A DNA stretch of 64,000 bases from Desulfatiglandales bacterium (GTDB lineage: Bacteria > Desulfobacterota > DSM-4660 > Desulfatiglandales > Desulfatiglandaceae). Positions 1,071 to 5,251 of the stretch are shown piece by piece. Location of the stretch: positions 2,496,001 to 2,560,000 of the forward strand of contig OY762721.1 in the NCBI GenBank assembly GCA_963666345.1, given 5' to 3'. Numbering within the stretch: the stretch's first letter is position 1; each line of letters begins with the position of its first letter. The translations under genes and the position numbers were made by a program. Below the pieces are notes generated by a model. The model searched no databases and was not told where the DNA came from. It saw only the letters and a program-made list of their open reading frames with translations.

Positions 1071-1973
1071 TTAGGCGATTTCCGGCTCGGAGTGCACCGG
1101 TTCAATCCTCTTCCCACCTTTATCGAGGACCTCCTCCATTGCCCTGGGGATATGTCCTATGACCTCCATAACCTGAGATGCAGGGGTGGGGCGTGCGTAG
1201 TGTCCGGCCAGCCTGTTGATCCCGGCCGCCAGAATCGCAGCCTCCTTTGTCTTTATGCCTGAGGCGATAAGGGCCGAGACAATGCCCGTGAGACTGTCCC
1301 CTGTGCCGCCCATGGCCTCAAGCGCCTCATCTGCGGGACTGTCTATAACGGCATGAACACCCTTGTTTGAGGCAACATGATCCTGCCGTCCCTTTACAAG
1401 AAGATAGCGGGCCGCGTTTTCATGCTCATAGGCACGGCTGATGAGTTCGGGTACCTGATCTTCGTTGTGGAGAATAAAGCCTCGCGTGTAAAAGGGGTGG
1501 GGGGCCTCTTCGTCCGCCAGAAATGCCAGTTCTCCGGCGTCAGGCGTGAACAGTTCATATGCCTTTGACTGCCCGCTCATCTTGGCAGCGTACATGAACC
1601 CGGCGTCGGCTATCAGCAAGGGGGGGTGGCTTATATCCGCCAGGGCAAAAAGGACCTTGTTATGCCAGTCCACATCCGGTTGCAGGTAATGGAAGGTTAC
1701 GAACCTGAGTCCGGACCGTCCTATGCTATGGACCAAATGATCATACAGGAGACGACTGCCACGGCCCAGGCCGGTGTCTCCCACCAGATACCCCATTGGG
1801 GGGGCTAGACCCAGGACCTTACACGCCATGGCAGCTGCGGCCAGCAGGGCCGGTGTGCCCCGGTTCACAGGGACAGTCGTTTCGCCTATATGTATCCGTT
1901 CTTTTTCAAGCCTGACCCTGCCGCTTATAAGCGGGAAGTCCTTGTCAGGCACTGTTCCCACTATGCCGAGCAT
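1071..1973 (-). CDS. Ribokinase-fold / YjeF-C (NAD(P)HX dehydratase-like) protein of the selenium cluster
   Basis: 'VKG' and 'GGTGDSLTG' ribokinase anion-hole motif; likely start ATG 1973 (MLGIVGTVP) overlapping the DUF3343 stop. Confidence 0.7.
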   Translation of the reverse strand: MLGIVGTVPDKDFPLISGRVRLEKERIHIGETTVPVNRGTPALLAAAAMACKVLGLAPPMGYLVGDTGLGRGSRLLYDHLVHSIGRSGLRFVTFHYLQPDVDWHNKVLFALADISHPPLLIADAGFMYAAKMSGQSKAYELFTPDAGELAFLADEEAPHPFYTRGFILHNEDQVPELISRAYEHENAARYLLVKGRQDHVASNKGVHAVIDSPADEALEAMGGTGDSLTGIVSALIASGIKTKEAAILAAGINRLAGHYARPTPASQVMEVIGHIPRAMEEVLDKGGKRIEPVHSEPEIA

Positions 1974-2515
1974 TGTCTTTTCATCTCCTCGTAGGCTAAC
2001 TGAAGCGCGTATCCACATAGCGTGTGGCCGATTTCCCGGGGGCCGGGTGCATCGCTGAGGGATTTTCCGACCATTTCCTGCGCAAGATAGGGGACATCCG
2101 GGCAGCCGCCTCCCGAGACGTTCACGATGATCGAGGTCTCCTTATCAATAGTCAGTTTCATGTTGGCCGCCCGGACCATGAGGAACCGGCCAAAATCCTT
2201 AGTCTGAAAGAGATTTACGGGTCGCAGCAAGGGGCTGCTGACCGGGACCGTTTCCAGGGGCGCGACCTCCTCTTCCCGGAGCCTCCTCAGTATGTTCAGT
2301 TCTTCAATAAGGGGAAACTCGATGACCAGGTCGCAGCCGCTTCGTATCTCCGGCGGCGGCCCCATGACACGGATGTCCCATTCGCCGGCCTTGAGGATGG
2401 TCTCGGCCCTGATTACCTCACTGGTGTTTTCAAACACGAGGATCCCTCGATCAATGTTCAAGGTCTTCGAATCCGTTTCCGATTGATTTCGTTTGAAAAG
2501 TGTTAAGAATCCCAA
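1961..2515 (-). CDS. DUF3343 domain protein, extended Cys-containing form
   Basis: 'ILVFENTSEVIRAETILK...PPPEIRSGCDL' DUF3343 pattern; C-terminal extension with GGGCPD and TLCG; next to yedE/yedF. Confidence 0.75.
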   Translation of the reverse strand: MGFLTLFKRNQSETDSKTLNIDRGILVFENTSEVIRAETILKAGEWDIRVMGPPPEIRSGCDLVIEFPLIEELNILRRLREEEVAPLETVPVSSPLLRPVNLFQTKDFGRFLMVRAANMKLTIDKETSIIVNVSGGGCPDVPYLAQEMVGKSLSDAPGPREIGHTLCGYALQLAYEEMKRQCSA

Positions 2516-2533
2516 GCTTGATACCTCAGGTCA

Positions 2534-2752
2534 TTAATCCTTTGAAATGGTAATATTATATACTTCACCCTCCGGCCGGACGTCTTTCACCTGCCACCCT
2601 TTGCTCTCGGCCGCGCGGCTAACGTTCTCCCTGGAGGTGACCGTGTCCACCAGAATGGTGATCTCGCCTTTGCCCACAGCCTTGATTTCATCCATGGTCA
2701 TCAATACAGGTTGAGGGCAGGAAAGTCCTCTCGCATCAACTGTTGTGCTCAT
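2534..2752 (-). CDS. yedF: TusA/SirA-family sulfur/selenium carrier (YedF-like)
   Basis: 'VDARGLSCPQPV' CPxP motif, 72 aa, directly downstream of yedE. Confidence 0.85.
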   Translation of the reverse strand: MSTTVDARGLSCPQPVLMTMDEIKAVGKGEITILVDTVTSRENVSRAAESKGWQVKDVRPEGEVYNITISKD

Positions 2753-2753
2753 G

Positions 2754-3857
2754 TCAAATCCTCCTTGCGCTACTTTTTCTCATGGTGAAACCGATAAACA
2801 GGCAGACCAAAAGACCAATTATCACGGCTGCAATCCCGTGAGGACCTACGCCTTTCGGCGAACTTGCCAGGCCGAAGTTGTGGGCGAATCCGGCTCCAAC
2901 TATCATGCCAAGGACGAATACCGCCGAATCTCCATCACCCTCTCCGGCTAAGAAAAGCTGCCGTCCCGGACATCCTCCGGCCAGGGTAAAGGCCAATCCC
3001 GCCACAACCATGCCGCCAAAGTTCCATAAGTGCATTGTATGGGCAACCGGTTGTTTGACAAAGCCGGGGTGAAATTGTCCCACGATAAGGTTCGTGACAA
3101 ACGCAAAAACCACTAAGGCGAGGAGTCCCATAAAGAGATGGGCCTGCCGGAACAGGATCAGGTCCCGGAAGGCGCCCATTGTACAGAAACGGCTCCTTTG
3201 GGCCAGAAACCCTATTGCAAGGCCCACGATCAGGGAAATATTTATTGCTGCGTGCATGGCACCCGGTCCCTTGAGACTGTAAAAAAGTATACCGCTTTTT
3301 GCCTGTCCCCGGATCTGGGGATAGATGAGCATGAGAATGAAAAAACCGATCAAGGTCAAGGGAAGCAGCCAGCCTGCAGAGGTATAGGTCGCATGGGTCC
3401 TGCCGAGGTTATATCCGTTTTTTAGAAACCTGGTGCCGATCCAGATCCCGAAGATGAGCCCTGCAAGGCCCAGAATGGCATTTGCGTCTCCGCCTGCAAG
3501 CCTTAACAGCGCACGCCACGGGCATCCCAAAAAGACCAGCGCACCTATCATGGCAAAGGCCCCGAGCACGAACCTTACGATCGGGGCTGACCCGAGCCTG
3601 GGCCTGAATTCCCTGAAAAGGTAGGCTGCAATGAGTGAGCCGAGCACAAAGCCTATGATCTCGGGCCGCATGTACTGAACCACCCCGGCCCTGTGGAGTC
3701 CGAGTGCGCCGGCTATGTCCCTTTCAAAGCAGGCAACGCAGATTCCCATGTTGCCCGGATTGCCCCAGTTTTGAAGCAGGGAGGCAAATACCCCGATAAA
3801 TGCCCCTACCCCTATGATCCCCCATTTTGTCGCGAAGATGTTCTTTAAATGTGTCAT
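2754..3857 (-). CDS. yedE: YedE-family putative selenium transporter
   Basis: Multi-TM protein with 'GNPGNMGICVACFERD', 'FLGCPWR', 'QRSRFCTMG', 'AGGCPGRQ'; SD GGAGG at 3866-3870. Confidence 0.9.
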   Translation of the reverse strand: MTHLKNIFATKWGIIGVGAFIGVFASLLQNWGNPGNMGICVACFERDIAGALGLHRAGVVQYMRPEIIGFVLGSLIAAYLFREFRPRLGSAPIVRFVLGAFAMIGALVFLGCPWRALLRLAGGDANAILGLAGLIFGIWIGTRFLKNGYNLGRTHATYTSAGWLLPLTLIGFFILMLIYPQIRGQAKSGILFYSLKGPGAMHAAINISLIVGLAIGFLAQRSRFCTMGAFRDLILFRQAHLFMGLLALVVFAFVTNLIVGQFHPGFVKQPVAHTMHLWNFGGMVVAGLAFTLAGGCPGRQLFLAGEGDGDSAVFVLGMIVGAGFAHNFGLASSPKGVGPHGIAAVIIGLLVCLFIGFTMRKSSARRI

Positions 3858-3889
3858 GCTGTTTTCCTCCAGGTAGTGTGATAATTCAG

Positions 3890-3924
3890 AGGCGCGCGGA
3901 TTTAAGAATCCCGCGCCGCCTTTT
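3890..3924. promoter_or_regulatory. Strong hairpin in yedE leader
   Basis: About 13-bp GC-rich stem with two bulges (aggcgcgcggatt-taag-aatcccgcgccgcct); U-tract only on the + strand. Confidence 0.55.
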
Positions 3925-4013
3925 CATGTTTCAGGATTAAAAATAGTCAGAAGAAGGAATGATGAACTGTTGATTTTTTTTAAGGAAAGTCGATTTTTCA
4001 GCCTCACCCTGGA

Positions 4014-4073
4014 CTACCTAACCCTGGCAGATATTTTTCAATGTGTTCAGGTAAAGCCGAAAAATTGATACAT
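4014..4073 (-). other. Candidate leader uORF MYQFFGFT-U-TH-U-KISARVR with two in-frame UGA codons
   Basis: ATG 4073, SD-like GGGAG at 4081-4085, TGA at 4047-4049 and 4038-4040, TAG at 4014-4016; G-rich-loop hairpins follow. Confidence 0.4.
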
Positions 4074-4098
4074 GCGTGAACTCCCGGCGGTAATAATC

Positions 4099-4160
4099 TT
4101 GACGGCTTCGCAAAGAGGCCGACTGCCCTGCCTTTGGAAATTTCTACCTCGCCGTCTGAA
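4099..4160. repeat. Degenerate, internally deleted copy of the MITE at 34511
   Basis: ttgacggcttcgcaaagag resembles ttgacggctttgtagaaag, and gccctgcctttggaaatttctacctcgccgtct resembles gccttgcatttgaactttctactgtgccgtct. Confidence 0.55.
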
Positions 4161-4176
4161 GCTTGGTTCGGGTAGA

Positions 4177-4205
4177 GGAATACAGGCTGTATGCCGATTT
4201 GTCAA
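4177..4205 (-). promoter_or_regulatory. Possible sigma70 promoter of the yedE operon
   Basis: TTGACA-17 nt-TATTCC; perfect -35, weak -10. Confidence 0.35.
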
Positions 4206-4363
4206 ACTGGAAATTCCGATAGCCACTACGCCTTTTTTAGGAATAGCCGATTGTGCTTAAAAGGTTTTCCGTTCGGTTCCGGCTGTATTTTTGAGATGCC
4301 ATCTGGTATTTATGATACTTACTGTCTTGAAGATCGACGGTCCACTTTAAAGGAGAACCATAG

Positions 4364-5251
4364 ATGAAACCTCAACGCTCCAGCCTCTATGTCCCGGGCA
4401 ATAAGGCCGCCTGGATCGAGAAGGCGACGGATTACGGCGCGGACGGCCTTGTACTGGATCTGGAGGATTCCGTACCTGTCAAGGAAAAGGCCCAGGCCCG
4501 CCTCATGGTCAAAGAGGGACTCAGGGCCCTGAAGGAAAAAGGGCAGGAATTCAGCGTACGAATAAACGGGCTTGCCACAGGGTTTGCGCGGGATGATCTG
4601 GAAGCCGTCGTCTGTCCGGAACTTGAAAGTGTCCTTTTGCCCAAGGTTGAGACGGTCGATGACATGAAAGAGCTGGACCTATTGCTGAGCCGGCTGGAAA
4701 GACGCCGCGATATGAAGCCGGGGGCCATAGAGACTCCTCTTGTGCTTGAAACCGCCAGGGCCATGCGCTCTGCCTATGATATATGCGTCGGCTGCCCGCG
4801 GGTGACAGGCGTAACCCTGGCCGCGGGCCCGGGCGGGGACGCCGGCAGATCGGTCGGATATGTCTGGTCAAAAGAGGGAACAGAGACTTTGTATATTCGC
4901 TCAAAGGCGGTGCTTGATGCCAGGGCCGCCGGAATCGACTATCCGCTCATCAGTTCCTGGTGGGATGTAGAGGATCTTGAAGGCCTGAGAAAGGACGCCA
5001 CGCTCAATCGAAGTCTCGGATTCAGGGGCCAGCAGGTCATGCACCCAAGTCACGTTCCGGTGGTAAATGAGGTGTTTACGCCCACTTCCGATGAGCTCTC
5101 TTTCTGCAAGGGGGTCATAGAAGCCGTGAAAGAGGGTGAAAAGGAGGGTAAGGCCGCTGTGAACTATAAGGGAGACATGATCGATTACGCCATGTCGAAG
5201 ACCGCCCGGCAGATGCTTGAATTCGCGCGATCGATCGGGCTAAAGGTTTAA
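4364..5251 (+). CDS. CitE/HpcH-family CoA-ester lyase
   Basis: 'RSSLYVPGN', 'LDLEDSVP', 'SVRING', 'LPKVE', 'HPSHVPVVNEVFTP', 'GDMIDYA'. Confidence 0.85.
   Translation: MKPQRSSLYVPGNKAAWIEKATDYGADGLVLDLEDSVPVKEKAQARLMVKEGLRALKEKGQEFSVRINGLATGFARDDLEAVVCPELESVLLPKVETVDDMKELDLLLSRLERRRDMKPGAIETPLVLETARAMRSAYDICVGCPRVTGVTLAAGPGGDAGRSVGYVWSKEGTETLYIRSKAVLDARAAGIDYPLISSWWDVEDLEGLRKDATLNRSLGFRGQQVMHPSHVPVVNEVFTPTSDELSFCKGVIEAVKEGEKEGKAAVNYKGDMIDYAMSKTARQMLEFARSIGLKV

Follow-up and report, generated by a model that had tools for sequence, protein, structure and literature searches.

A conserved UGA-containing leader with a SECIS-type hairpin upstream of yedE, a candidate selenocysteine-dependent attenuator in sulfate-reducing and syntrophic bacteria

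We analyzed a 64,000-nucleotide (nt) stretch of a Desulfatiglandales bacterium genome (GenBank assembly GCA_963666345.1, contig OY762721.1, positions 2,496,001 to 2,560,000; hereafter the window), in which a short leader element lies on the minus strand ahead of yedE, the gene for a YedE/YeeE-type transporter. The leader sits in a spacer of 506 nt. It opens with a Shine-Dalgarno (SD) sequence, GGGAG (4085-4081), followed after 7 nt by AUG (4073-4071), the codons UAU CAA UUU UUC GGC UUU ACC and a UGA (4049-4047), which together form an open reading frame (ORF) core, M-Y-Q-F-F-G-F-T, with UGA at codon 9 (4047..4073). Past this first UGA the frame continues through ACA CAU, a second UGA (4040-4038) and AAA AUA UCU GCC AGG GUU AGG to UAG (4016-4014); read-through would yield the tail T-H-UGA-K-I-S-A-R-V-R-UAG (4014..4046), a peptide that is not conserved. 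The sequence, the SD and the spacings of two AGGGU motifs, of which the first begins 21 nt past the first UGA and the second 27 nt past the second, are exactly as described in an earlier note on this DNA, which had suggested either a selenocysteine (Sec)-dependent attenuator with two tandem hairpins or a tiny selenopeptide.

The minus-strand RNA downstream of the first UGA offers several pairing partners. A hairpin of the selenocysteine insertion sequence (SECIS) type occupies 4014..4030, with stem CUGCC (4030-4026)/GGUAG (4018-4014) and loop AGGGUUA (4025-4019). Around it, segment 1, CAAUUUUUCGGCUUUACCUG (4048..4067, inside codons 3-9), pairs as the 5' arm of an outer helix with segment 2, CCAGGGUGAGGCUGAAAAAUCG (3991..4012), the 3' arm, as judged from the paired-cell count and from base-pair changes that keep the pairing. 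A candidate segment 3, AUCAUUCCUUCUUCUGACUA (3944..3963), could displace segment 1 as the partner of segment 2; it is included in a G-poor, C/U-rich tract following the element (3921..3990), a candidate Rho loading region. yedE itself (2754..3857, start at 3857, Pfam Sulf_transp) is the first gene of a minus-strand operon whose remainder (1071..2752), assigned by Pfam, encodes yedF/TusA (2752-2534), a Se/S-carrier DUF3343 protein (2515-1961) and a Carb_kinase-like protein (2018-1071). A search of window positions 3600-4600 against Rfam gave no family match at E up to 10, and a promoter/terminator consensus scan called no terminator in the spacer.

The leader recurs well beyond this locus. Scanning one genome per species with a degenerate pattern, M-Y-x-F-F-G-F-T followed by TG with the last base left open for Cys or Trp, returned 94 stretches, against about 4 expected by chance (hand arithmetic). 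TGA accompanied by the hairpin and the downstream arm is found in 87 of the 91 distinct pattern-found sequences, and in the window copy besides; three others have TGT or TGC, without hairpin or downstream arm, and look like the chance fraction. Judged by record titles, carriers belong to the Desulfobacterales, Syntrophales, Syntrophobacterales, Desulfomonilaceae and Desulfatiglandales, with one Thermodesulfovibrionales and one Zixibacteria metagenome-assembled genome besides. Among them are Desulfobacter curvatus DSM 3379, Desulfobacter vibrioformis DSM 8776 and Desulforhabdus sp. TSK. A covariance model (R1) built from the pattern-found set and searched in 151 genomes of the window's order matched 52 of them (41 of the 90 high-quality ones), with up to three copies per genome. 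In the window's own genome, nhmmer and the covariance model agree on a single copy, at yedE; the next nhmmer matches have E = 0.027 or worse and gave no second copy. yedE orthologues are present in 22 of 40 relatives, and the upstream regions of three of them (L012, L013 and L015) carry the same unit of SD, AUG, seven codons, UGA and hairpin, each leader having 19 codons with UGA at codon 9, so that the AUG-UGA spacing is conserved among orthologous leaders.

The frame preceding the UGA bears the marks of translation. A start, seven codons and UGA are present in 66 of 69 distinct model-found copies, the exceptions including a GTG form of 9 codons and an element that an insertion interrupts, and the alignment of relatives places an SD of the AGGAG or GGAG type mostly 6-10 nt ahead of the AUG. 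Codons 2 and 3 are free, with 14 and 15 different residues in the model-found copies; codons 5-8 encode F (61/66), G (59/66), F (65/66) and T (64/66) and are followed by UGA (66/66). Per-position entropies in these four codons are (.11,.11,.91), (.44,.11,.75), (0, 0, 1.04) and (.11,.11,.87). Variation is thus almost confined to third positions, which argues that the frame is translated, and the three-base periodicity, which holds although the same bases form one arm of a helix, points to amino-acid selection on the C-terminus of the peptide.

The UGA at codon 9 is invariant: all 66 framed model-found copies and all 87 true pattern-found copies have it, and no interchange of UGA with a Cys codon was seen among them. 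Beyond the UGA the picture differs. In 76 of 137 copies the next stop is codon 20, where the UAG belongs to the GGUAG arm of the hairpin; in the others it falls anywhere from codon 10 to codon 49. In other clades a different frame crosses the hairpin. A stop at codon 12, where the window has its second UGA, occurs in only 3 of 137 copies. Nothing peptide-like is thus kept past the UGA. The U-x-x-U (CxxC-like) motif that the two UGAs had suggested is therefore no feature of the family, whose sole conserved UGA is the first, and the element is unlikely to encode a functional selenopeptide.

To assess the structure we combined RNAalifold with an explicit count of pairs on 88 sequences, which supports two helices: the inner hairpin and the outer helix between codons 4-8 (segment 1) and the stretch that follows the hairpin (segment 2). 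For outer helix and hairpin together, 89.5% of cells are paired, compared with at most 57.7% when the partner is slid, nine pairs have changed on both sides, and none of 500 shuffles reaches the observed values. Within the arm formed by segment 2, changes of U-A to C-G and of C-G to U-A preserve pairing. The inner hairpin has compensatory changes in five of its six pairs, with 87.5% of cells paired, and the duplex of segments 1 and 2 (1:2) in the window has an energy of -24.5 kcal/mol. Hence only one of the two tandem hairpins proposed earlier survives comparison: the first co-varies, and the second, UAGUC-CAGGGUGA-GGCUG, is not conserved as a hairpin and is instead the 3' arm of the outer helix.

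The genome that contains the window has the full machinery for Sec, with selC (tRNA-Sec, 74.6 bits), selB (393.8 bits), selA (608.9 bits) and a selD that carries one TGA and is itself a selenoprotein gene. By tblastn we located 15 real Sec-UGA sites in this genome, in hdrA, mvhD, a CCG/HdrD-like gene, fdhA, a DUF1573 gene and selD, and compared their SECIS elements with the leader hairpin. Bacterial SECIS elements carry a conserved G or GU in the apical loop, at a set distance from the UGA. At nine of the 15 sites a stem of 6-7 base pairs (bp) starts at nt 19-20 past the U of UGA and the loop has GG at nt 27-28; the loop in hdrA is AGGU. In the leader, the stem spans nt 20-24/32-36 past the U of UGA, beginning 17 nt past the codon, and the AGGGUUA loop has its GG(U) at nt 26-29. 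This geometry, in stem spacing and in loop, is that of the HdrA, MvhD and CCG-protein SECIS elements of the same genome, and some leader copies have a stem (AUUACC...GGUAA) almost identical to two of the mvhD stems (AUUACC/GGUAAU). The leader hairpin thus looks like a genuine SECIS, one that would bind SelB and direct Sec insertion. The SECIS elements of this genome fall into two spacing classes, one with the loop G's at nt 21-25 (fdhA, selD and one mvhD site) and one with them at nt 27-28 (hdrA, the CCG protein and the second mvhD site); the fdhA loop, GGUCU, we take to resemble that of E. coli fdhF.

The genes that follow the leader make up a coherent group of yedE/yedF, selD, selC* tRNACys-selB* and Cys-type paralogues of selenoprotein genes. 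We ran Pfam on the first two downstream ORFs, which 72 of 87 copies had in any form. SelB is encoded at 11 leader loci, YedE with TusA at 10, and SelD at 2. In two of the YedE loci a Porin_O_P-family gene comes first, and two further contigs end in that porin. MvhD/FlpD, HdrA-like flavoproteins, CCG/Fer4 proteins, FdhA-like molybdoenzymes, [FeFe]-hydrogenase, NuoE/F, rhodanese and DUF1573 proteins also occur. Among the commonest are HGD-D/BcrAD-BadFG (2-hydroxyacyl-CoA dehydratase-type) genes, at 11 loci. Where the paralogues in the window's genome have TGA, the leader-linked genes have Cys: HdrA in 12 of 12, the CCG protein in 8 of 8, MvhD in 8 of 8 and FdhA in 1 of 1, or 29 of 29, against a baseline for the same motifs of 11 Sec to 5 Cys (5/16); these counts are motif-anchored, the baseline comes from the window's genome only, and the leader-linked genes are kin and not independent. 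Taken together, the genes headed by the leader look like a selenium-starvation regulon.

At the SelB and porin-yedE loci a transfer RNA (tRNA) gene lies 60-100 nt past the leader, with an 8-bp acceptor stem and U73, and with either anticodon UCA and A1:U72 (six loci) or anticodon GCA and G1:C72 (four loci). Of the two forms, only that with UCA would be able to decode the UGA of the leader. Pairs of a selC* tRNACys and selB* are known from the Syntrophobacterales and Desulfobacterales, the tRNA having an 8-bp acceptor stem and U73, according to PMC5389517, and the leader-linked tRNA and SelB match that arrangement as far as it is described there. In the order-level sample, second SelB copies with lower scores adjoin leader matches on the same contigs.

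Segment 2 has an alternative partner. With the bases under a ribosome positioned at the UGA blocked, its partner becomes segment 3, situated some 115-145 nt from the AUG; in 106 of 135 copies, across subfamilies that differ in sequence, this 2:3 pairing comprises 8 or more pairs. The 2:3 duplex has a mean energy of -19.1 kcal/mol (n = 101). Among the controls, other stretches gave -15.8, -11.9 and -14.8 kcal/mol, shuffled sequences -13.3, and pairing with the segment 3 of another element -15.2. By family means the two pairings are nearly iso-energetic (1:2, -21.1; 2:3, -20.3 kcal/mol). The tract at +80 to +140, between segments 2 and 3, is poor in G (0.09) and has a C content of 0.25-0.30 (138 copies). 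Rho is encoded in the window's genome (697 bits). As no consistent intrinsic terminator was found, we propose Rho-dependent attenuation gated by the choice between 1:2 and 2:3.

From the observed conservation, translation signature, SECIS geometry, outer helix and gene association, we consider it probable, with clear reservations, that the element is a cis-acting leader on which a ribosome measures the capacity to decode UGA as Sec and turns on a selenium-starvation regulon. Sec insertion at the leader UGA, stalling, the role of the 2:3 helix, the involvement of Rho and the polarity are the parts that we infer. A dedicated promoter would give a transcript opening with an SD and the 9-codon frame M-x-x-F-F-G-F-T-UGA, followed by the SECIS hairpin at the spacing seen in selenoprotein genes. 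If SelB-GTP-Sec-tRNASec is available, it would bind the hairpin, the UGA would be read, and the ribosome would end a few codons on at the next stop; 1:2 would then re-form, leaving the tract free, and transcription would be cut short. If Sec-tRNA is lacking, the ribosome would wait at the UGA, with the nascent F-G-F-T probably slowing termination by release factor 2 (RF2). The waiting ribosome would cover segment 1 (codons 4-8), segment 2 would be free to pair with segment 3, the 2:3 helix would tie up part of the G-poor, C-rich tract, Rho could not load, and the operon would be transcribed. This polarity agrees with the known behavior of Methanococcus, which is reported to employ Cys isoforms when selenium is depleted (PMC11097638). 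The earlier proposal of a Sec-dependent attenuator is thus upheld in its components, namely a translated leader ORF, the UGA, a SECIS-like hairpin, selenium genes in cis and complete Sec machinery in the genome, and attenuation itself has been made likely only.

Several points weigh against this reading or limit the evidence for it. The 5' arm of the outer helix was fixed by the first search pattern; the model-found set is less biased, yet the model was built from the pattern set, and related copies are not independent of one another. In the window, the 2:3 duplex is weak (-11.8 kcal/mol, against the -24.5 of 1:2). When segments 2-3 of 35 sequences were aligned with MAFFT, RNAalifold predicted no pairs, and a column-wise covariation count was impossible because MAFFT places segment 3 of the subfamilies 4 columns off the pairing register, so the 2:3 helix rests on energy comparisons of related sequences. 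Scanning with loops of up to 9 nt found only weak, scattered terminator candidates, in 44 of 122 copies, and Rho is therefore assumed, not shown. Some Desulfobacterales-type copies have UGCC-U5 after segment 3, with which 2:3 could act like a terminator and the logic be reversed. The assignment of the on state to an undecoded UGA derives from gene content and not from a demonstrated switch, and the two leader-linked selD genes are Sec forms, fitting either polarity. SelB is found in 127 of the 151 genomes of the order, and its co-occurrence with the leader accordingly says little. For some of the controlled genes, HGD-D and transglutaminase-like ones among them, no link to selenium is known. 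Finally, metatranscriptome contigs from four runs, in which 7% of the words were present, compared with window positions 2700-4400, covered parts of yedE only, from relatives at 85-95% likeness, and none lay over the leader; such contigs say nothing about expression.

The alternative that survives best is the same sensor with opposite polarity, in which Sec insertion would bring the ribosome onto or next to segment 2 and block a terminator-like 2:3 helix, the operon being on with Sec and off in shortage. The stop at codon 20 abuts segment 2 in those 76 of 137 copies, a U-run follows UGCC after segment 3 in some, the leader-linked selD genes are Sec forms, and yedE belongs to the Sec-utilization trait in comparative genomics, according to PMC5322559. 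We nevertheless judge it unlikely: the 29 of 29 leader-linked HdrA, CCG, MvhD and FdhA proteins with Cys contrast with 11 Sec to 5 Cys in the window's genome, a selC* tRNACys-selB* pair would be sensible as a backup, only a minority of copies have U-runs after segment 3, the 2:3 loop measures 30-50 nt, and the stop varies in position from codon 10 to codon 49.

Another alternative dispenses with decoding. The hairpin would be a SelB-binding operator that is bound by SelB or titrates it, whether or not SelB carries Sec-tRNA, with an effect through blocked translation or RNA fate, and the UGA would be the mere stop of an 8-residue leader. SECIS geometry fits this as well, the 5' untranslated region (UTR) of E. 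coli selAB provides a precedent, and several copies have another stop 1-5 codons past the UGA, which would make read-through products irrelevant. The codon is, however, never UAA or UAG in the 66 of 66 and 87 of 87 copies and stands at the exact SECIS spacing, the C-terminus of the peptide next to it is under amino-acid selection, and the outer helix makes the position of the ribosome, not SelB binding alone, the centre of the fold. We regard an operator of this kind as improbable, more so than reversed polarity.

That the element is a gene for a small functional selenopeptide (11-19 residues here), co-transcribed with selenium genes, we hold to be very improbable. Such a gene would account for the SD, the AUG, the coding signature in codons 5-8 and the UGA with its SECIS, yet frame, length and sequence all vary past the UGA; the apparent conservation of an S-T-R-V-R ending before the stop coincides with the hairpin, which other clades read in another frame, one copy has UGA-UAA, the second UGA is not conserved, and there are no homologues with Cys for Sec. 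Finally, a chance ORF beside chance hairpins in a non-coding spacer, in favor of which one could cite the short stems, the frequency of stop codons in spacers (the earlier note's own caveat) and the missing Rfam match, deserves next to no credence and is already refuted by the 87 distinct copies against about 4 expected, the model matches in 52 of 151 genomes, the covariation and the codon periodicity.

Returning to the reading with the operon on when the UGA is undecoded, we tentatively extend it to a feedback loop, which we find conceivable but would not rank as the likelier outcome. The leader would be the master switch of a programmed shift in decoding. Once Sec-tRNASec is exhausted, ribosomes that the nascent F-G-F-T peptide holds at the UGA would induce selenium uptake, selD, Cys isoenzymes and selC* tRNACys(UCA)/SelB*; the latter pair would then read the UGAs of selenoprotein genes as Cys and also the leader UGA, shutting the regulon down. 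If this holds, the meaning of a codon would be both signal and output of a feedback loop.

Upstream of the leader lies a conserved block on the minus strand that appears to be a promoter/operator, TATCGGAATTTCCAGTTTGACAAATCGG (4194..4221), with a -35 TTGACA at 4205-4200 and, 17 nt on, a candidate -10 TATTCC at 4182-4177. Of 104 leader copies, 47 have the motif TTGAC[AT]-[ACT]AT[TC][GC] in the 160 nt before them; the frequency of the motif in the window's own genome, where its extended form occurs only once, would predict about 0.001 occurrences per stretch of that length. The consensus promoter scan missed the block because its -10 is weak. Two ATCGGAA-like repeats about 21 nt apart surround the -35 in TATCGGAAWWTCCAGTTTGACAAATCGG, and the block looks like a transcription-factor site for the leader regulon. 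It is also found upstream of leaders at 13 named loci and others, and ahead of yedE in relatives without the leader.

Between the tract and yedE stands a GC-rich hairpin, GGCGGCGCGGGAUUCUUAAAUCCGCGCGCC (3891..3920, minus strand), 33 nt ahead of the yedE AUG and without a U-tract; the consensus scan of the window did not call it as a terminator. It occupies the place at which relatives have selC*-like tRNAs or fragments of them: upstream of yedE, L013 has an intact tRNA (ARAGORN), L012 (L012/L105) only a tRNA-like 5' half, and L015 (L015/L106) pieces resembling an anticodon loop and a T-loop. The hairpin may be the decayed remnant of a tRNA.

Some genomes have close pairs of leaders, each heading its own unit. 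Five such pairs were seen, among them L063/L087, whose members are 2.3 kb apart; L063 shows two tandem leader-selC*-selB* units, and in L069/L070 a leader-mvhD-fdhA unit adjoins a leader with a NuoG-like gene. Two copies are incomplete in different ways: in L197 (G051:C34:12482-13040) the halves AUG-to-ACC and ACCUGA-onward are separated by about 100 nt, and in L102, the same as L189, the ORF and UGA are kept and the hairpin is lost after CUACCA. The HGD-D-type gene is the second gene at four of its 11 loci, at two of which a transglutaminase-like gene precedes it; the closest homologue in the window's genome has no in-frame TGA. At four loci a Porin_O_P-family outer-membrane protein, a candidate for the channel by which a selenium oxyanion crosses the outer membrane, is encoded between leader-selC* and yedE.

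To our knowledge, how bacteria sense their selenium status is largely unknown, and we know of no established regulator outside the methanogens that switches between Sec and Cys isoenzymes. If the proposed mechanism is correct, a recoding event would be a new type of input for attenuation, with the capacity to decode UGA measured on the ribosome. It would explain the co-ordination of selC* tRNACys/SelB*, YedE/YedF uptake, SelD, Cys-type HdrA, MvhD, HdrD-like proteins and FdhA in sulfate reducers and syntrophs, and would mark as selenium-linked the HGD-D-type dehydratases, the Porin_O_P-family protein before yedE, DUF1573 and rhodanese. The leader could also provide a compact, portable biosensor for selenium or Sec, and its F-G-F-T-UGA motif is a candidate for a new RF2-modulating nascent peptide.

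The leader is a widespread and apparently undescribed regulatory element. Full-text literature searching found no description of a leader ORF with UGA and SECIS, a scope outside which Vargas-Rodriguez 2018 (selC*, SelB) lies and may bear on the matter. Word searches of PMC5389517 (main text), PMC8762117, PMC13188914, PMC12360218 and PMC8124441, a set that includes a 2026 review of prokaryotic selenoproteomes, likewise contained no such leader; specifically, the words 'leader', 'SECIS' and 'operon' are absent from the searched text of PMC5389517, and 'seleno' does not occur in that of the review PMC12360218.

The leader shares features with several known systems and differs from each. Like the trpL, hisL and pheL attenuators, it has a short translated 5' ORF with its own SD and with the codon for the sensed aminoacyl-tRNA, and, as proposed here, the position of the ribosome would choose between exclusive helices (1:2 or 2:3) that control genes of the sensed pathway. 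Unlike them, it would sense through a single UGA that requires SelB and a SECIS rather than through a run of sense codons, it has no conserved 3:4 intrinsic terminator with a U-tract among the copies scanned, and the C-terminus of its nascent peptide is conserved. As in E. coli fdhF-type elements and in hdrA, mvhD, fdhA and selD of the window's genome, the hairpin stands just 3' of an in-frame UGA, with the spacing and GG(U) loop of the latter genome's SECIS elements; unlike the SECIS of selenoprotein genes, it serves a 9-codon ORF whose product past the UGA is not conserved, and it stands within an outer helix formed between codons preceding the UGA and the stretch that follows the hairpin. 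In the SECIS-like element of the E. coli selAB 5' UTR, SelB binding represses translation, and no conserved translated leader with a UGA is known there. That element and the leader have in common a SECIS-type hairpin placed for feedback on selenium or Sec genes; what is conserved in the leader, by contrast, is that it is translated as far as an invariant UGA.

Also comparable are tnaC, speFL and cruR, upstream ORFs at which stalling on the stop codon gates Rho, as summarized in PMC12360218. In the systems as described there, as in the leader, a conserved nascent peptide ends at the stop and the regulated genes include a transporter, and occupancy of the stop is proposed to decide whether Rho uses a nearby C-rich site. 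The signal differs: it would be competing decoding, by Sec-tRNA/SelB or by RF2, in place of a small molecule in the exit tunnel, and because the G-poor tract begins about 55 nt past the UGA, shielding would be indirect, through refolding of the RNA. A genomic parallel is offered by the selC* tRNACys-selB* loci of PMC5389517, since the same tRNA and second SelB lie directly downstream of many leader copies; that paper treats the tRNA, SelB* and CysRS*, and the leader copy in the window has no tRNA and would control yedE.

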